Source: Octopus sinensis
Taxonomy: Eukaryota
Length of the DNA: 64,000 bases
Assembly: GCF_006345805.1 (NCBI RefSeq)
Contig: NC_043013.1
Span: 19,034,001-19,098,000, forward strand
Reading direction: 5' to 3'
The notes beneath the pieces are model-generated. The model ran no database searches, had not been told where the DNA came from, and saw only the letters and a list, made by a program, of their open reading frames with translations. A program made the translations under genes and the position numbers. Below are positions 1 through 19,510 of the stretch, piece by piece. Every line of letters starts with the position of its first letter. Position 1 is the first letter of the stretch.

Positions 1-129
1 TTTCCTCTACAACTTTTATTTATCGTCTTTTTAGATTTGAATTTCAGACATATGACGGTGGAGGGTCAAGTAGAAAAAAAAGATGAATACTGCTGTTCTT
101 CAGTTTCACTCAAGAGTCCAAACTTGCTA

Positions 130-722
130 AGTCTCTTGAGACATTTGTACTGTGTACACAAAAAAACGCTTTCACTTAAAATAATGCAATGAAACGATTC
201 TCTCGCTTCAAGGACGGGAAATTCTACCTCACAAACTCTTTGTGTTCCGAAAGGCACGTGCAGTTCCATGGAGATCAATTAAACGAGCTCATCCACGAGG
301 GTCCGCACCAATCTACGTGGGTATTGATCCAGCACGTGGGAGGATTTCCTGATCTTGTCGCCTGTCAGCTTCTGTCGGTGAGTAGGATCCTAAAAGTCGG
401 TGTATGAGTTTCACGCTCTGAATGAAAGAGACAAACTAGAGCACGTCTCTATTGTCGCCAGTTTGCTTGTTCAATAACGGTCAACTCATTAACACAAACA
501 CAGATTTCTTTGCCGCAATGTCACCAGTGATGATAAAATGGCGTTTTTATGTGAATATAAAGTGGAGGAAAGAATGGCTGAATCCTGATAAGAAAGCTAC
601 ATCTCGAGCCAAGTCAGAGCTGCACCCACACAAGATAATAATCAGCATTTGGAGAGATGGGGAAGGGCTACTGCACTACAAAATGCTTGGAAACAACTAC
701 ATGATCAACGTAGGAATCCAGC
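130..722 (+). mobile_element. Decayed mariner (Mos1/SETMAR-like) transposase fragment
   Basis: Frameshifted peptides RFSRFKDGKFYL...LIHEGPHQST (HTH region) and IKWRFYVNIKWRKEWL...KSELHPHKIIISIWRDGEGLLHYKML match the mariner DD34D N-terminal catalytic region. A SINE interrupts it at 723. Confidence 0.8.
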
Positions 723-1139: not shown

Positions 1140-2000
1140 TTCATTGATGTGGCAGTGTTTGGATCGTATTGGTGAAGAGGTTTTCATCCTGTCGGTAAAA
1201 ACATTCATCAACAGCATATATGACGTCATTACTGCGACACTAGTTCCCAGTCAAGTTTTTTTTCTTATTGGCTAACAGATGATAATCAAATGGGGCCAAA
1301 TCAGGGGAATAGGGAGACTGTGGAACCAGTTCAAAAGTCATAGTCATGCAAGGACTTATATACTGGAGCACTGTTCTGAAAAATCAAAATCCCATTTCAC
1401 AGTTTTCCTGGGCGTTTGGTGTTGATAGCTTTTAATAACTAACTCAGCATTTTGGCAATGTAATATCCACTGAAAATATACAAAATTGATTTTTGCTTCC
1501 CACAAAAACTGAGGCCACTACCTTCGCTTCAGCTGAAACGACCGTGCCCTTCATGGGAGCAGGTGAGTAGGGGTGTTTCGTTGCCGTTGCATATATTGTC
1601 TTTTTTCTCTGGTTCAAAGCATGGAACCCATTTTGATGATGTGTCAGAAGATGTGGCACCTACCGTGCAGAAACATTCATCATGCCAAGTTCTTTGCGCA
1701 GGATATTCTCAACTCTTTCATAGGATATGCAATAGCAATGGCTATTTGATTCATAGTCGATAGCTTGCCATCCATCTGCATATGGTGAACACGAATAATG
1801 TTTTCCTTGCTGGTGGGAGTTGTAGGACATCAAGACTGCAGGTAATTTTCAAGACTTTCTCCTTTGTCTCCTAAATTCAGCTGCTCAGTTTTGCACTGTT
1901 TATGAAGCTGGAATGTCATCCCCAAATATAGCAAGCATATCAGCATGAAAGTGCATTGGGGGGCATAAACCCTTTCTCTGCAGCTACTTGATAACACTAC
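1140..2000 (-). mobile_element. Second decayed mariner transposase
   Basis: The minus strand reads PQSPYSPDLAPFDYHLL (YSPDLAP motif, ~1270-1323) and (W>*)VPHLLT (~1645-1663). Boundaries are approximate. Confidence 0.8.
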
Positions 2001-2197
2001 AATGCTATTTTTTCCCTTTTCAAACGAAGTCGCTACCATTTACATTTGGAATCTTCTTTGAACACTCAGATATCAGTTTACCTGGAAAGAAACAATGCAA
2101 CCATTAATAAGAGGGTTTAAAAATTAATGCATACGACATGTTATGGTACTAGTATAACTTTTTCATAGTCAACCTATGAACTTTTAAGCTCACCTTC

Positions 2198-2229
<32 letters not shown>

Positions 2230-2351
2230 TACACAGGTGCTTATAATTATCAAGTACTCACCCCGAATTTCTATACTCAACTCACCTACGTTGTCACTAG
2301 GATCTGATCCCACGTAACCGCGACAACCTTTAGTACTTGACGAACCCAAGC

Positions 2352-4858
2352 ATGAAGATTCAAAGGATTCACACAAACTTCTCCCCCAAGGACATACCTC
2401 TCCACTCCGACAAAACTTACACGACGACTCTCATCCACCGGACCACAGACTTTATTAGAAGAATCAGGTGGGCGGCCTACCATTTCGATAACCCGGAGAA
2501 AAGCAACCCCAACTCTAACCAAGAAGAAATAGTACACAGGAAGATATTTAAAAGCAGAAGAAACCCACCCTCTAACTACGCACTGGAAAATTTTGAAAGA
2601 GACTTAATCGACCTCATTACCAACATCAACATTAGTAAACATAAGACCATTCCCAACACCCACTTAAGGAGCCTTAAAGATTTCCTGCATTCACTTAGGA
2701 ACGATGATAGTCTTATCATACCCGCCGACAAGACTGGGAACTGGTATAGGCTAGACTACCAAACCTACAAATCGCTCATCATGAGGGAACTTAGCAAAAA
2801 ATATAAAACTACTTCTACGGATAACCTTAAGGAAATTAACTACAAAATCAAGGAAGTTATGAGCAAATTAGACCTCCTAGACAGAACAGAACCTATTAAA
2901 CCACAAGTACCCAAAATTACTATTAAAGACCATAAGAAAGACTTCCCAGATAATGTAGGAGTACGATTAATCTGTCCGACTAAATCGGATATCGGCAGAC
3001 TTAGCAAGACTATCCTGGACAAGGTGATCCCACACATCAAACCCCACATCCCACTCCAACTATGGATTAACACCGACGATGTGCTAGAATGGTTTAACAC
3101 TATCACCAATAGGCCCGACTACTCATTCATCCAATTCGACATAGCTAGCTACTACGCCAGTATATCCCCCATCTTACTTAACAAATCCCTTATATTTGCC
3201 CGCAACCTTTCACTCATAGACAGAGAAAAATTGACATAATACTATTAGCTAGAAAAACCATAATAGAATTCGACGGTAGACTCTGGACCAGATCCGATAC
3301 CCCCGACAATTTTGATGTGGCTATGGGCTCGAGCGATTCAGCTCAGGTGACTGACTTGGTCGGGGCCTACCTGCTCAAGAAGCTTTTCTCCGAGGTACCG
3401 GATCTTCAGGGGGGTCTATACAGAGACGACGCTCTCTTCATATACCCCACCAACAATAGGAGTAAACTAGAAAGAATTAGGAAAAAGATCAGGCTTTTTT
3501 TCAAATCCTTCAATCTTAAACTAGAATTTATGACCAATACTAAAATAGTAAACTTCTTAAATGTTACGTTAGACCTGAATAAGCACCTTCACCACCCATA
3601 TAGGAAACCCGAAGAAACTACCAAATACATCCATACCTCTTCCAACCATCCACCCTGTATAATTAGCACCACGGTCCAAGCCATCTCAGACAGACTGACA
3701 AAACTATCCTCTAATAGAGAAATTTTCAATAATCACGCACAACACTACAACCAGGCTCTCTATAGTGCCGGGTATAACCAGAGAATATCATATGTAGACC
3801 ACCCGGGAGCGTCCGTCTGCCATAAAACTCCCAATTATAATCGAACTCAGCATTCAACTCACTCTAGCGATAATTCTAATTTAAACTCCAAACAACGTAT
3901 AGGAAATAGGCGAACTAATAGAATAGCACACAATAGTAACCCTCCCGACGAGAACAATATAGATCCTATTAGGAGCAATAGAAGGGATAATAGATTACGC
4001 AAATACATATGGTTCAACTTACCTTACAACTTAGCAGTTAGGGGTAAGTTATGTAAGAGAATATTCTCTATCATTTCCAACAACTTCCCACCCACCCACA
4101 AGTATAGAAGTATCTTCTCCAACAAAACCATTAGGATTTCCTACTCTACCCTGCCCAACATGAGCTGCCTCATAGCTAAACATAACTATATTAATATTAG
4201 AACAGCTAGATCAAGAGCAAACCATAGCGACCAACAGAACCCCCCTCATCTAGACAGTAGACAATATAACCAGACTGGCAGCCATACTACCCAAACAGTT
4301 AGTAATAACTCCCGCCAACACAACAGAGGAAATACTACACCCATCAACAACCAGGAGGATATCAACGCCCCCACTCGTATTGCAACACCTCCGCCTGGGA
4401 TTAGCAGCACACGACCGAATAATGCAATGCAATGCAACTGCAGATGTGCATCAGAGTGCCCGCTGCAGGGCGCATGTAGGGCGAAAAACGTAATATATTC
4501 ATGTGAGGTGAGTACCCAGTTTAACACACTCACCTATATTGGTTGCTCAACCTCCTGGAAATCCAGATACTACAACCACCGGTCCTCGCTGAGACACAGA
4601 CATAAGGCTAACAGCACCTCCCTTTCTAAAAGAATTTAGGAATTAAAAGACAAATGTATAGGCTTCAAACTCAGATGGTCCATCATCGGATCAGCTGCAC
4701 CTTATTTAAATAATAGAGCAGGATGCCAACTATGTTGTGTAGAACTCCTGAACATCTTGAAATTCAAAGACAAACACAATCTTATTAACAAAAGGTCAGA
4801 GTTCAAACCATCCTGTATACACAAACTTATTAATACTTTCAAATACTACAAAGCTTAG
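2352..4858 (+). pseudogene. PLE ORF (reverse transcriptase + GIY-YIG endonuclease), ~835 aa when repaired; 1 frameshift and 1 in-frame stop
   Basis: Motifs: IIPADKTGN, RLICP, FDIASYYASI, MGSSDSAQV, GLYRDD, VNFLNVTLDL, YRKP, SNHPP, CNCRCASECPLQGAC, NVIY...YIG...RYYNH, CQLC...E, LINKRSE..CIH. The frameshift is in an A-run at ~3226-3231. TAG at 4637-4639 sits at a usual Trp position, and the frame continues to TAG 4856-4858. Confidence 0.92.
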
Positions 4859-12796: not shown

Positions 12797-13420
12797 GAGG
12801 GTGGCAAGCTTGCACTGTCATTAGCACGTCGGGCAAAAGGCTTAGCGACAAATTGGCCGTCTTTGCGCTCTGAGTTCAAGTTCCACCAAATAACGAAGTT
12901 TCATTTCTTCCTTTCGGGGTCGATAAAATAAAAACCGGTTGAGCACTGGGGTCAATATAATAGACTTACCACCGCTCTCTCCCGAACTTGCTGGCTTTGT
13001 GACAAAATCTGAAACCAATACATAGGCGTAGGCGTGCCGGTGTGGTAAGAAGCTTGCTTCTCAACCACAAGGTTTCGCGTTCAGTTCCATCGAATGGTAC
13101 CTTGATCTGTTTTCTACTATTGGCCCGGGCTGACCAAAGCCTTGTAAATACATTTGGTAGACGGTAAATAAAAGAAGCCTGTCGTACACACACACACACA
13201 CACACACATATTCATGTGTGTGTATGTATGTGCATATCTATGCGTGTGACTTTTCGGATTGGGGTTGTCTCTTACAACCGGTGTTGGTTAGTATACATCC
13301 ACGTAACTTAGCAGGTCAAGAAATTTATCCGATAGAATAAGAGCCAGACTTGAAAAATAAATACTGGGATCGATTTGTTCGACTAAACTCTTTAAAGTGG
13401 TGTCCCATCATGACTGATCA
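12797..13420 (+). mobile_element. Diverged SINE B followed by diverged bipartite SINE C
   Basis: B core at ~12800-13015. The C head at ~13025-13185 is followed by (CA)n and a tail to ~13420. Confidence 0.7.
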
Positions 13421-14308
13421 TACGCTTACTCGCTGAAATGTTTGTCATAATTTGGTCATGTTTCCTTGAAATGGAGCGTAAAAAAAAACTATGTCGCTGA
13501 CAAATAGGTTCTTATAAGAGTTACAAGTCTTTATTTGTTTAACTGTCAGCGTATAATTCATAGCTTTTAAGTTGTGATTTTACCACACCGCTCTGTTAAT
13601 TGTTATATACATTTATTTTATTACCTGTAATCCAGTGGAGCGTCTCATTTTCACATTCTGGTTAACAAAGATACCTTGTTTCCAGGAACTTACAACCTTA
13701 CAATGAAAAGTTTCCTTCTGCTACAAGTAAACAGATTCTAGGGTTGTAAGTATTTACCAAATTGTGGCGGTTTAGCCAAAATACTGACAAGTAGTGGAAC
13801 TGCTAACCCTGTCACATCTCAGGACCTAAGGCGGAAGGAAATAAGTCAGTGCGTGACAGTACGACCTTCTGTGTTAGTCTTTTTACTCTTTTAGTTGTTT
13901 CAGTCATTTGACTGTGGCCATGCTGGTGCACCACCCTTAGTTGAGCAAATTGACCCCAGAGCTTATTCTTTGTAAGCCTATCAATATCTTTTGCCGAACC
14001 ACTAAGTTACGGGGACGTAAACACACAAGCATCGGTTGTCAAGCGATGTTGGGGGGACAAACACAGACACACAAACATATACACGCACTTAATACATACA
14101 TATATATATATCACGTCACGTGATATCACGTGACCGACCAGACTATCAGATGTTGTTACACATCGCTGGTCACAATGCGTTCGCATTGTTTTAGCCTTCG
14201 AATGACGCCACCCCGCTGGCTAAGCGAGCAGGCCAACAGAAGAAAAAGTGGGAGAAAATATATAGAAATATATGCATCTCGAATTAACAAAGGCGTCTCG
14301 CTGATATA

Positions 14309-14342
<34 letters not shown>

Positions 14343-14346
<4 letters not shown>

Positions 14347-14812
14347 CGAGACGCCTTTGTTAATTCGAGATGCACATATTTCTATATGAATAATATTTTG
14401 TCTAATGACTAATTCGTCTTTTGTGCTGGGCCACTGGTAGTAATCTATGTCATTACCCTTTTTTGATTATATTCACATATTACTTGATAGATTTGTTCGT
14501 AATTTTTCTTCCCGGCATGCCCTATATCACCGGGTAGATTTTGCGTCTGCGCAGAAGTTTGAAAAGTTAAGGTTTACAAATTGTTTAGATCAACACATGG
14601 TCTAACGCTCTGTGCATCACGTATTAACAAAGGCGTCTCGCTGATGAAACCGGCCTTAGCAAACATATTCTGTCTGTTTTGCTAGAAAGAGGTAGAAACT
14701 GATCAGTCCGGGATATATCGTTAATGGTAAATGTTTTTGATTTTCACTCTCGATGAATTTATCCCTTTTTTGTGTCCCTAGCACTTGGCATCCTTATTTG
14801 GGAGCCCTTAAT

Positions 14813-14815: not shown

Positions 14816-14857
<42 letters not shown>

Positions 14858-15199
14858 ACAGGTTTCTTCAAGTTTTCGTCTACCAAATCTACTCACAAGG
14901 TTTTGGTCGGCCCGAAGCTATAAAGAAGACACTTGCCCAAGGTGCCATGCAGTGCGACTGAACCTGGGACCATGTGTTTCGTAAGCAAGCTACTTACCAC
15001 ACAGTCACTCCTGCACCTATTGTTGCAGACTACTTGTTTATTATGTGATAATGATGACAATAATATAAAAATAATTCTGTCTTTTATTCCTTTAAATTAT
15101 TTCCATCATCGGACTGCGGCTATGCTGGAGCACCGCCTTAATTTAATCTAATCTTTTTTTTTAGTTTTCTTGTCGGTTTATGATTGAAAGTTGGTCGAT

Positions 15200-15564: not shown

Positions 15565-15964
15565 TACCAGGCTGAGGATTTCTGGAAATTATCCATTATA
15601 GAAGCGGCCTGAAAGGCTTCCGAAAGAGACCAGTTACTTCATCCTTATCAATACCTATAGTTTTCTTGAGAAGACCATCACTCTTATGCACCACTAGGAC
15701 TCTGTACGTTGCTAACATGAAACTGCCACCATTTAGATGCTGCAGCACCAGCATCTAACAGGTACTCATTACAGCTGAGTAAACAGGAGAAACATGAAAT
15801 TAAGTACCTTGCTCAAGGGTCACAAAGTGGGATTCTGCTGAGGAATTGATCTGACGACTTAGGATAATTTTATTGCTGTTATTTAGCGCACTAGTTAACG
15901 ATATTAGGTTGAAAGGCTCTCCAGTCGTGCCGCACCACCTTTTTAAGAATTTGCTTTGAAGTCT

Positions 15965-16380
15965 CCGCTCTACAACGTAAAGTATAATAGCCATCTCAAT
16001 ATGGCTAACCACTAAGGGTGGGTGTTACTGTAGCTTTTAGCCCCAGGAGAACATCGTCTCCAGCTGGCTTTAGGCACACTATCTGTGCCCTTATGGTGAC
16101 GGAAGTTACTAGAAAAACCCATAAGTATTTGCAAACAAGTCTTCCTTTTCATCGTAAACCGGTGATTACCGTGCGTTGACAAGAGGCAAATACCTCGAAA
16201 CTGCAGTCCGTGCGTATCACTTAGGTTTACGAGAGAGGGATGACCTCCCTTTGCAAATACCACAAGAGCACAGATAGTGTGCCTAAAGCCAGCTGGAGAT
16301 GATGATCTCCTGGGGCTAAAAGCTACATTAACACCCACCCTTAGTGGTTAGCCATATTGAGATGGCTATTATACTTTACG
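15965..16380. mobile_element. Fold-back element with ~113-bp inverted arms enclosing a hammerhead
   Basis: Arms are 15976-16088 and 16268-16380. The flanking direct repeat GCTTTGAAGTCT is at 15953-15964 and 16380-16391. Confidence 0.82.
16171..16213 (+). ncRNA. Type I hammerhead ribozyme motif, U3-A8 core variant
   Basis: GTGCG-TTGACAA-GAGG-caaata-CCTC-GAAA-CTGCAG-TC-CGTGC, with a GUC cleavage triplet (16208). Helix I is extended by GTGAT/ATCAC and CGTAAACC/GGTTTACG. Confidence 0.8.
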
Positions 16381-19126
16381 CTTTGAAGTCTGTTATTCAA
16401 CAAGTCACGTGATAAGGTACAGTCTCTTTCGTAGATAAGCAGTGACCAATACTCGAGAAAAATAAAATATATTCCAACTCTTGATTACTTTATGGTCGTC
16501 AATTGTTTGATATTTTCTTGTTTTGAAAGCTGACTTATTCTTTAGGGTACAATGTTTACCAATGCTGTCCTGAGATTGTTGCCAAATTGGAATTTGTATC
16601 AATGTCTAAAGTCGCCTTTCGTCAATAACACAGGCAACCTTGAAACATTCAGATATTTTTTTTTTCTCAATCACTTTCATAGAATCTTAATTATTATTGC
16701 ATGGATCTACAAAAAAAAATTGTTCTTGACATTACGTGAATATTTGGAACGTGTCACTGGGAGCTGCAATTGTCCCTTTTGTCAATGTATCATTTATCTT
16801 TGAGAAATAACAGGCCACATCTGATTATAGATGAAAGTGGTGGGATGGTGTGGTGGAAGCGAGGTAGCAGTCCTCTAATCCATTGTGCACTGCTTTAAAA
16901 AGGAAGTACAAAAACTGACAGTAATGACATTGAAAGTCTTAATAAACAAACCACAAGTTTTAATAACAATGCACTTGACAATCAACTTTTGCTGCTTTCT
17001 ATTATTTGACGCCTTCTCCGTTCTTGTCAGCGTTGTATTTATTCTGTTTTTATATCGTCTTTTATACTAATTTGCATTGTATAACGTGTGTGAATTCCCA
17101 AACAAAAAGTAATAAACGATCACATGGAAATAATAGAATAGATATTTCTAAATGTGTTGTTCATATTTACATCTCTTCTTCTTGAGGCTCATCAAATTTA
17201 AAGTATGTATCATATCTTATTTGCGAAAGCGATCAGAATTGTCGTAGACCTAAGTAGAGTTTCAATAAATGACGGAAACCTGTTTGTCTATTTGACCACC
17301 TCGGTCAGTGTTGTAATAACAATACCACTTTTCACTAATGAAATCCAATACTCACGTAAGAGGAACTGTCGTCTGTTACGTTGTTGTTGTGGCGGGGGCT
17401 GTGGTTTAGTTACGTATCTATCCTGTTACAGCAGACATATGACCAGGAGTAATAAGAAAAAACTCGTCTTTTTTTTAAATAAAAACTATATTTTAAGAAA
17501 ACAAAGCTGCGATTTGAGAAAGATTTGGTTGCTAATTCTAACAAGTCAAGTTGCCTAACAGAGGCTCTCTCTTAGTAAACTTTGATTTGCTTGTTGTATC
17601 ATCTCTTGTGTTCTTTCTTCTTTAAAATAACAAAACTTTGATTTGAGGAAGATTTGGTTGCTACTTCTAACAAATAAACTTAATTACTGATACAATACAC
17701 TCAGGGGTATCTACTGCACAATATCGTCAGAGCTTTACTCTGAAGACTCGATATCTACTTGATATCATAAGACAACAAATTATAATAAATCAAAATTATA
17801 ACCTTAAAGATTAGAACAATTTTCATATAGATTTCTAATTCTAATGAAAAAAAAACGCAAAAAAAGAGAACCCTGAAATGTTAATAAATCAAATTAAATT
17901 AAATATGGAGTGTCAGTGAATGGAATAACTTGGGGCATCGTAACCAGTGAGTATAATAACTTGGGAGATTCTACTCTAAATCTATTTTATATCTCTCACC
18001 CAGATCAACAATGCTCGCTTATGCACAGTAAAATATAAGCAATATAAATATTTTGAAAGCATCCTATCAATTGATGCAACTGCAATTGCCAAGGGCCAAG
18101 GCAAAGATGGAAGAGATATCCTCATCAGCTACATAACGGTGTATTTTCTTGATTTTGTAGTCTCTGGCTGGAGCTGGCTCAAACTATTCTGAGTGAACAC
18201 TGACCAAGTTGCATAACACTAACCTCCCACCACTCATACAAACAAAATATCGAAATGGTCAAAAGAAAAACAAAAAAAGAGCGTAGGAAGAAATAGATAT
18301 GTCGAGCACCTATTTGTGAGGCTGACTCCCCACGTGTCATAATTCTGATCATGGCGGGTATGAGATAACCCCCAAAACTCAATTAAAACGCTTTTTCTCT
18401 AATTGAACAAATAAATCCGGTTCTGTAAAAAAAAAAAAGATTTATAAATTCCTTTCAAATGAGAGTGTATACGGTTCTAGTTTTTTTTCTTTATGATATC
18501 ATTCTTCTAATTTCCGGATACTGGCCGAGTTCCCAAGAGCTCTCCTTCATATGAGAATTAGTTCATTTGTAAGCCCTAATTCTTAGCCTGCACCCGACTC
18601 TATGGGTGTGTAAAGTAGAATTACTGATAACATTGTAGGTGTTGAATAACGTCACTGGAATATGTTGAACATTGATTTGCTGTTGATCTAGTGACGTCAT
18701 TGTAATTTTATCATGGAGCTATTGTATTAGTTTTCTTCGAACTATTGACGGGAGTGGTTAATGAAGTGACAGTGGCGAAGGAGGCACGTGGATTTCAGTT
18801 ATTCAAATAAAGCCGTTATCTTTCTTGAAGCGATATAAGTCAAAATTAAATATTTACCTACTACCTATTGAACTGACGGGAAATTTCTGAAGCTTTACAG
18901 AAATAATGAAATGCATTAGTAAAGCCTTCATGCCTTCACAGCAGGATTAGTGATGTGCGGCATGTCAAAATATTCTAGGCATATTTAGCCAAGAATGCCT
19001 ACAGGTGAATATTGAAATACTTAATTCTCTACACGTGTGGAAATTTGGGGGATCATGTAATGTCCGATTGCAATTTACACGATCCAAGCAACTGAAAGAA
19101 ACGTTTTATACTGAAAGAAACGTTTG

Positions 19127-19510
19127 TGTAGCCCCTTGTGGGCAATAAAGAAATAAGAGACGTTAGCACGCCGGGTGAAATGCTTTGCGGTATTTCGTCT
19201 GCCTCTACATGCTGAATTCAAATTCCGCCGAGGTCGACTTTGCCTTTCATCATTTCGGGGTCGATTAAATAAGTAGCAGTTACGCACTGGTGTCGATATA
19301 ATTGACTAACACCCTCCCCCACAATTTCGGGCCTTGTGTCTAGAGTAGAAAAGAATCGTTATCATGCTGGGTGAAATGCTTAGCGGCTTTTCTTCCGAAT
19401 GTACACTCCGAGTTTCAATATCGCCGAGGTCAACTTTGCCTTTCATTGTTTCGGGGTCAACAAAGTAACATTGAAGTCCCGGAGGCGATTGAATCGATTT
19501 TCCTTCACCC
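19127..19510 (+). mobile_element. SINE B cluster
   Basis: Two or three partial family B copies. Confidence 0.8.

Follow-up and report, generated by a model that had tools for sequence, protein, structure and literature searches.

A truncated, inverted retrozyme insertion with a U3-A8 hammerhead in Octopus sinensis, probably copied by a Penelope-like element

The window analyzed here, 64,000 nucleotides of Octopus sinensis DNA (assembly GCF_006345805.1, contig NC_043013.1, positions 19,034,001 to 19,098,000, forward strand), contains a 415-bp fold-back element that encloses a hammerhead ribozyme (HHR) with a U3-A8 pair in its core. What kind of mobile element leaves such a structure, and what part would the ribozyme have in its spread? 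A first account based on the DNA letters alone (the sequence-only reading) saw a functional variant ribozyme in a non-autonomous fold-back element. We find that the element arose by insertion of a ~355-nt tandem monomer of the retrozyme type that lacks long terminal repeats (non-LTR retrozymes), and that the inserted sequence is truncated at its 5' end and inverted head to head. This non-coding retrozyme was probably copied by the reverse transcriptase (RT) and endonuclease of a Penelope-like element (PLE), with the U3-A8 ribozyme acting as a dimer in the source RNA.

Layout of the window element

The element is bracketed by a target-site duplication, the 12-bp direct repeat GCTTTGAAGTCT (15953-15964 and 16380-16391), and the span between the repeats, 15965-16379 in window coordinates, is the 415 bp originally reported. 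The inverted arms are also real, but their length had been given as 113 bp, which ends before the last two mismatches; they measure 121 bp with 5 mismatches (15977-16097 and 16259-16379), or 122 nt at 96% in a second measurement that counts in one base of the duplication. Twelve extra bases at the left end are unpaired (15965-15976). In monomer numbering, the element reads 355..223 inverted and then 60..343 forward, with GT as overlap. Its features are as follows.

15953..15964, plus strand: target-site duplication, left copy, 12 bp (flanking direct repeat)
15965..16097, minus strand: inverted, 5'-truncated second monomer copy, monomer ~223-355
15965..15976, minus strand: 12-nt extension of this arm only, an abbreviated version of the one-sided tail, which usually reaches ~37 nt farther
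16096..16097, no strand: 2-nt overlap (GT) at the inversion junction
16096..16379, plus strand: main 5'-truncated monomer, covering 60-343 in monomer numbering, whose 3' end is the preferred end A
16125..16260, plus strand: long predicted stem prolonging helix I, 16125-16175 with 16209-16260 (folding)
16162..16220, plus strand: type I hammerhead, with helix I at 16170-16175/16209-16214, an internal loop, and a distal helix at 16162-16166/16216-16220
16176..16182, plus strand: variant core U3-U4-G5-A6-C7-A8-A9, U3 at 16176 and A8 at 16181
16183..16196, plus strand: helix II, 4 bp, G10.1-C11.1, loop CAAATA identical to the RF00163 consensus loop
16200..16207, plus strand: palindrome of helix III (A15.1-CTGCAG-U16.1), through which two ribozymes are predicted to pair
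16208, plus strand: C17, with predicted cleavage 3' of this base (position from hammerhead numbering)
16380..16391, plus strand: target-site duplication, right copy, 12 bp (flanking direct repeat)

A repeat family with two main ribozyme cores

The repeat is ~355 nt long and has copies in the hundreds. In the best 30 loci of the 2.7 Gb genome searched, the unit runs round into itself, and a 355-nt monomer was taken from a partial tandem that occurs naturally. Genome-wide, 545 sites match exactly a 24-mer located 3' of the core. A core pattern that leaves positions 3, 4, 7, 8, 10.1, and 11.1 free and fixes the CTGCAG palindrome has 647 matches against 0 for its reversed control, so that chance does not account for them. 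These split into 174 U3-A8, 442 C3-G8, and 31 other forms (by hand among the first 100: 24 U3-A8, 69 C3-G8, 6 U3-G8, and 1 C3-A8). As such, TTGACAA is a subfamily trait, and its possible role as the family consensus is not borne out. The paired change is nonetheless fixed in an amplified subfamily, and decay after insertion is ruled out as its origin because both changes occur together in 174 copies.

Related subfamilies extend the family further. The pattern for other helix III words has 2052 matches, mostly CTCGAG among the 100 listed, with tandems of ~353 nt; a six-ribozyme array of this sister subfamily lies at locus L172. With U3-A8 required and helix III left free, 249 matches are found, and U3-A8 dimers are present at L187 and L075, those of L187 being full. 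In hand counts, direct ribozyme-to-ribozyme pairs ~350 nt apart number 11 in the first 100 matches of the canonical CTCGAG sister and 1-2 in the U3-A8 lists.

The 355-nt monomer with its type I hammerhead and tandem copies, and the 12-bp duplication of the window copy, agree with metazoan non-LTR retrozymes, which have non-coding monomers of 150-450 nt, type I hammerheads, tandem copies, and duplications >4 bp; mussel and axolotl monomers are close in size (330-390 nt).

Another high-copy element (L015:873-1000) contains 62 nt of the monomer (282-343, up to site A), and we take its own end, a hairpin followed by CTAG, to resemble that of a Helitron. Pieces of this type probably inflate both the 3604 genome candidates for the window element and the read-contig depth over that part. 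Contigs from three runs presumed to be RNA, and from one run of another organism, cover the window element; this coverage is not diagnostic of transcription, strand, cleavage, or circles.

Insertions end at two preferred sites, mostly one per arm

We dissected 74 distinct insertions, 46 of them head-to-head inverted and 28 in a single orientation; the first 30 loci were chosen by likeness to the inverted query, which inflates the inverted share. The fold-back, described earlier as the structure of the element, is a by-product of insertion, since 28 of the 74 lack inversion at their ends. Whether breakpoints vary, as in PLEs, or are fixed, as in MITEs (miniature transposable elements with inverted repeats), had been proposed as a check, and they vary: 44 of 45 two-piece inverted copies have distinct junction pairs.

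Duplications of at least 10 bp flank 34 of the 74 insertions compared with 18 of 300 mismatched-flank controls, microsatellites included. Those outside microsatellites (21 of 74) measure 10-16 bp, with a mode of 12 and 83% AT, and a TA run is found at an end of 29 of the 74 insertions against a background of 7%. No poly(A) or shared tail of a long interspersed nuclear element (LINE) is present at the insertion ends.

The 3' ends cluster at monomer position ~343 (site A) and at ~37 of the next unit (site B), ~50 nt apart. Specifically, 32 inverted copies have both ends at A or B, and 31 of these combine one A with one B, while the remaining 14 of 46, including the window copy, have an end elsewhere. 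Among 62 further insertions, for which the class windows were 2 nt wider, the same rule holds in 14 of 14 informative inverted copies (of 24). Combined, 45 of the 46 inverted copies that are informative carry A on one arm and B on the other. Of 122 pieces, 97 span the cleavage site and 37 exceed one unit. Truncation at the 5' end, partial tandems, an inverted copy, a one-sided tail, and AT- or TA-rich targets, all features of PLE-mobilized sequences, are therefore found together in this family.

The ribozyme is predicted to act as a dimer

The core TTGACAA from 16176, the palindrome CTGCAG at 16201 (with C17 at 16208), and the long extended helix I stand as first described. Folding of helix II (GAGG/CCTC, with CAAATA as its loop) together with helix I and the long extension of the latter gives z = -6.4 (0 of 200 shuffles as good), and this central fold is retained when the whole element is folded. 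The type I core is complete (U4, G5, A6, A9; G12, A13, A14; A15.1-U16.1; H17), with three helices and with the ends in helix I. The 3-8 pair is Watson-Crick in the window copy (U-A), as it is, either as U-A or C-G, in 616 of the 647 genome matches. The window copy differs from the column majority at 3.5% of positions, none of them in the core; the median for U3-A8 copies is 4.3%.

The suggestion that standard searches miss this variant is upheld. An Rfam search of 16050-16300 gives no match at E<=10, whereas a canonical sister copy (C3-G8/G10.1-C11.1) matches RF00163 Hammerhead_1 with 32.2 bits and E 1.6e-6, under the gathering score of 34. Rfam also misses a C3-G8 copy with a C10.1-A11.1 mismatch (L054). 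Over the full window, only microsatellite-driven matches below gathering scores appear among the 150 of 173 listed.

Within one molecule, helix III is unstable (2 bp and a 4-nt loop, +2.9 kcal/mol), while the intermolecular 8-bp helix III duplex is predicted at -11.1 kcal/mol. The cofold optimum of two window ribozymes is a dimeric hammerhead at -53.9 kcal/mol, compared with 2 x -22.1 (-44.2) kcal/mol for the two apart. On these energies, the U3-A8 ribozyme is likely cleaved only as a dimer. The window copy has exactly one ribozyme, as opposed to the minimum of two consecutive HHR units by which Li et al. define active copies, and is probably inert. The earlier label of a functional variant may thus apply to the source RNA of the subfamily and not to this copy.

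A core swap followed by palindrome swaps

A tree of 90 units, core columns included, places 52 rows, nearly all of them U3-A8, together in a group (96/94) inside C3-G8 lineages; L079 falls elsewhere. A 123-row tree built only from sequence 3' of the cleavage site also nests U3-A8 in C3-G8 lineages. The trees suggest that the swap from C3-G8 to U3-A8 was probably about one event. The canonical CTGACGA/CTCGAG sister appears younger, its branches being close to zero.

Other core positions differ between the classes. We parsed 140 ribozymes, a set enriched in U3-A8 by the choice of loci fetched: positions 10.1-11.1 are G-C in 53 of 55 U3-A8 ribozymes and C-A in 42 of 81 C3-G8 ribozymes, and C4 occurs in 14 of the 81. 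The C10.1-A11.1 mismatch marks the majority C3-G8 CTGCAG subfamilies (e.g. L046 and L054), many with C4 (CCGANGA). One locus (L063:994-1081) joins U3-A8 to the older C10.1-A11.1 and may represent an intermediate form or a recombinant.

Helix III is a perfect palindrome in 121 of the 140 ribozymes and self-pairing in 127, with five different perfect palindromes. In a hand count of the first 100 of the 249 U3-A8 matches, the helix III words are CTGCAG (62), CTGCGG (20, with a G-U wobble), CCGCGG (7), CTATAG (6), and others (5). The CCGCGG copies cluster within the U3-A8 copies (95/90), and the CTATAG copies are likewise U3-A8; a search for CCGCGG with too strict a 3' context returned 11 matches and no CCGCGG, this subfamily carrying an extra G. 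After the swap, the palindrome was therefore altered twice more with its self-complementarity kept, which suggests selection on a dimeric ribozyme.

A structure alignment of 36 hand-picked rows (35 distinct), chosen using the GAAA..TC part, is 95.6% paired for the named structure compared with 24-53% for slid controls. Of the 20 pairs, 7 have two-sided changes, which involve all helices as well as pair 3-8, and covariation cells and score beat shuffles (0 of 500), although both are inflated by relatedness. G5, A6, A9, GAAA, U16.1, and C17 are invariant. Folded as circles, the natural U3-A8 monomer of L187 has z -7.0 and the sister -5.2; that of L075 (z -0.7) is read as a decayed copy.

Penelope-like elements in the same genome

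PLEs with a GIY-YIG domain are abundant in this genome (147 matches among the 150 scored of 5029 candidates), and intact RT plus GIY-YIG frames of one family are ~99% identical to each other. The window element itself has no such frame, which sets it apart from autonomous PLEs, and tblastn with 20 PLE frames gives no match in the window and one flank match among the family loci searched.

Several PLE families carry minimal U3-A8 hammerheads of their own near their 3' ends (L094, L117, L118, L120, L125, and L128), and the ribozyme of another PLE copy has a C4 core (L116); U3-A8 thus seems common in the PLEs of this genome. Near ~5000 on its minus strand, L120 also has a distinct hammerhead-like motif of the U3-A8 type, whose helix II measures 4 bp and whose palindrome is CATG; it has no similarity to the retrozyme family.

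At L174:62-1567 (also L186:~1800-3567), a copy of the canonical sister subfamily is joined directly to a PLE RT fragment. The other arm is the inverted 3' end of the PLE, and the missing middle part is not in 9.5 kb. The fusion is possibly a chimera made in a single event. Other candidate links were rejected: at L107 and L116, microsatellites lie between the related repeat copies and the PLE frames, and these copies were judged to be independent insertions; L061, with two ribozymes at a distance of 2 kb, represents one copy that a LINE fragment interrupts; and at L180 the repeat meets an old PLE end in tail-to-tail orientation, without a duplication.

Comparison with known systems

Animal non-LTR retrozymes make circles, and PLEs are their hypothesized mobilizers (Cervera & de la Pena 2020, PMC7229834); retrozymes have also been argued, from co-occurrence and homology in the pseudo-LTR (pLTR), to be non-autonomous PLE derivatives (Li et al. 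2026, 10.64898/2026.07.22.740005). The octopus family shares with retrozymes a strongly self-paired predicted circle (L187, above) and the coexistence of PLEs. It differs in its U3-A8 core and in copies that are mostly dispersed, truncated, and often inverted; the word "inverted" has 0 occurrences in the main text of PMC7229834.

The likeness to PLEs lies in the partial tandems, the inverted 5'-truncated copy, the one-sided tail with two start sites, and the TA-rich targets. Published work on a PLE describes a pair of RT start sites, the extension of both strands, targets rich in AT, and a tail on one side (PMC11167929, PMC8557442). The two internal start sites produce the tail, both strands are extended, and the protein is predicted to be dimeric (Frangieh et al. 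2024, PMC11167929); further PLE literature includes Craig et al. 2021 (PMC8557442) and PMC6765202. Hammerheads of PLEs and their pLTRs also resemble the octopus ribozyme in the U3-A8 core, the palindromic helix III, and opposite-strand ribozymes 100-700 bp apart. Unlike the minimal PLE hammerhead, that of the octopus repeat has canonical geometry, with a 6-bp helix I, a 4-bp helix II, and a CAAAUA loop.

The U3-A8 pair, called a variant in the sequence-only reading, is real but already recorded in nature. The C3-G8 to U3-A8 covariation occurs in several natural ribozymes and had earlier been reported active in vitro (Perreault et al. 2011, PMC3088659), where U4C and mismatched 10.1-11.1 variants are also natural. 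Cercyon PLEs of Schistosoma have U3-A8 hammerheads (~1,300 matches); opposite-strand ribozymes and low activity in vitro are described in the same work (Cervera & de la Pena 2014, PMC4209133). Compared with the variants of PMC3088659, the octopus swap can be placed in a subfamily series within one genome, together with the C10.1-A11.1 to G-C change and the palindrome swaps. What is added is not the pair itself: its origin can be traced to the canonical ribozyme of a retrozyme, and the insertions have an anatomy of the PLE type, with two start sites. A literature search, with most subscription papers and repeat databases outside its scope, found no report of this family or of a rule of one start site per arm in retrozymes.

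Mechanism and alternatives

In the course of events that we consider probable, a tandem source copy would be transcribed, and two ribozymes would pair through the 8-nt palindrome and cut after C17, the monomer perhaps being circularized. A PLE protein would bind the circle or an uncleaved multimer and nick both strands of AT-rich DNA 10-16 bp apart. One cDNA would then be primed on each strand, at site A (monomer ~343) on one and, ~50 nt farther downstream, at site B (position ~37 in the following unit) on the other, and the head-to-head joining of two truncated cDNAs would give the fold-back. A single C3-G8 to U3-A8 change in a source copy would have kept the core pair, and amplification would have gone on. 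Overall, the interpretation first given to the locus is partly supported, and the insertion anatomy supports the published hypothesis that PLEs mobilize animal retrozymes.

A more far-reaching proposal, which we advance tentatively and with distinctly less assurance, is that this retrozyme lineage preserves, in its insertions, how the Penelope machinery works in vivo: a PLE enzyme acting as a dimer would prime both target strands, each from one of two fixed start sites on a circular ribozyme RNA, the core of which would have moved from C3-G8 to an active U3-A8 while its dimer palindrome was repeatedly exchanged. If true, this would be direct genomic evidence of PLEs mobilizing animal retrozymes and would provide a natural series for the evolution of the hammerhead core. 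On the enzyme that mobilizes animal retrozymes, the family contributes evidence at the level of insertions together with exact predictions (start sites at monomer ~343 on one strand and ~37 on the other), and its genome contains intact PLE frames. The natural core series (C3-G8 with C10.1-A11.1, C4, then U3-A8 with G-C), missed by Rfam, can be assayed side by side.

Several observations count against PLE mobilization of an active ribozyme RNA. The monomer shows no similarity and no pLTR likeness to 7 PLE stretches (50 loci fetched; 150 of 5029 candidates scored), unlike 24 of 57 Xenopus retrozyme families, which have pLTR homology. The fusion at L174 occurs in 1 of 137 loci, its TA flanks do not allow a duplication to be called, and it may be a nested insertion with deletion. 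The octopus tail of ~50 nt is longer than the PLE tail of 30-40 nt, and the left end of the window copy (355) is neither site A nor site B. On the side of the ribozyme, 5' ends at the cleavage site are not enriched (1 against 3.8 expected), and the missing pile-up together with pieces across the site fits a circular template and equally an uncleaved one. Without core columns, the tree fails to separate U3-A8 from 4 C3-G8 neighbors, with L079 (U3-A8) elsewhere, and as the swap was probably about one event, the 174 copies are not 174 independent covariations. The number of pairs with two-sided change is not above shuffles (204 of 500 reach the same), and among dimers of Xenopus retrozymes 1 of 9 was cleaved and 8 of 9 showed no cleavage (10.64898/2026.07.22.740005).

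The best-surviving rival, which we judge unlikely, is a PLE-mobilized repeat with a weak or dispensable U3-A8 ribozyme, its structure serving RNA folding or protein binding and uncleaved transcripts being copied. Copies that cross the cleavage site without a pile-up of 5' ends suit it, as do the odd cores of the ancestors (C4, C10.1-A11.1), the rarity of ribozyme-to-ribozyme pairs among U3-A8 matches (1 in the first 100 of one list and 2 in another), and the finding that PLE insertion in vitro proceeds without ribozyme cleavage, HHR mutants leaving it unaffected (PMC11167929). Against a dispensable ribozyme are the invariance of G5, A6, A9, GAAA, U16.1, and C17 in the 36 rows, themselves picked with the GAAA..TC part, the share of mismatched 3-8 forms, which make up at most 31 of 647 matches, and the pairing kept through two palindrome changes after the swap; in vitro activity of U3-A8 is, moreover, reported in PMC3088659 from earlier work.

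Mobilization by a LINE, with inversions from L1-type twin priming, is considerably less probable still. Duplications of 10-16 bp and AT-rich targets are compatible with LINEs of the apurinic/apyrimidinic endonuclease (APE) type too, LINE pieces lie inside some copies, and no PLE partner was found. Twin priming, however, inverts a non-overlapping 5' part, whereas here the 3' part of the repeat is on both arms and ends at two different fixed sites, no poly(A) or LINE tail is shared, and the LINEs observed are themselves inserted into the repeat. A MITE or fold-back DNA transposon with a chance hammerhead-like sequence, which the short, non-coding window copy with its long inverted arms and direct repeat resembles, is rejected as scarcely credible, given junctions (44 distinct pairs of 45) and arm lengths that differ in nearly every copy, asymmetric ends, 28 of 74 insertions without inversion, the existence of tandems, and a duplication length that varies from 10 to 16 bp: neither ends, inner junction, nor duplication length is fixed as in MITEs.

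Other observations

In six copies (L052, L061, L164, L167, L170, and L189), a LINE-like 3' end (AATAAAG and a few further bases) abuts the repeat at almost one and the same position, immediately 5' of helix I (monomer ~110-135). Both LINE sides are visible at L189, with a ~14-nt duplication, and the LINE of L167 has a 400-aa open C-terminal frame with zf-RVT. From the target specificity of Tx1, we presume that this is possibly a Tx1/L1-type LINE targeting the retrozyme; the literature search found no report of a LINE targeting it.

Elsewhere in the window, other interspersed repeats lie at 12797-13416, 13874-14257, 14816-15025, and 19155-19510 (44-59 matches among the fetched loci), and a (TA)n core flanked by a perfect inverted repeat lies at 14280-14367.

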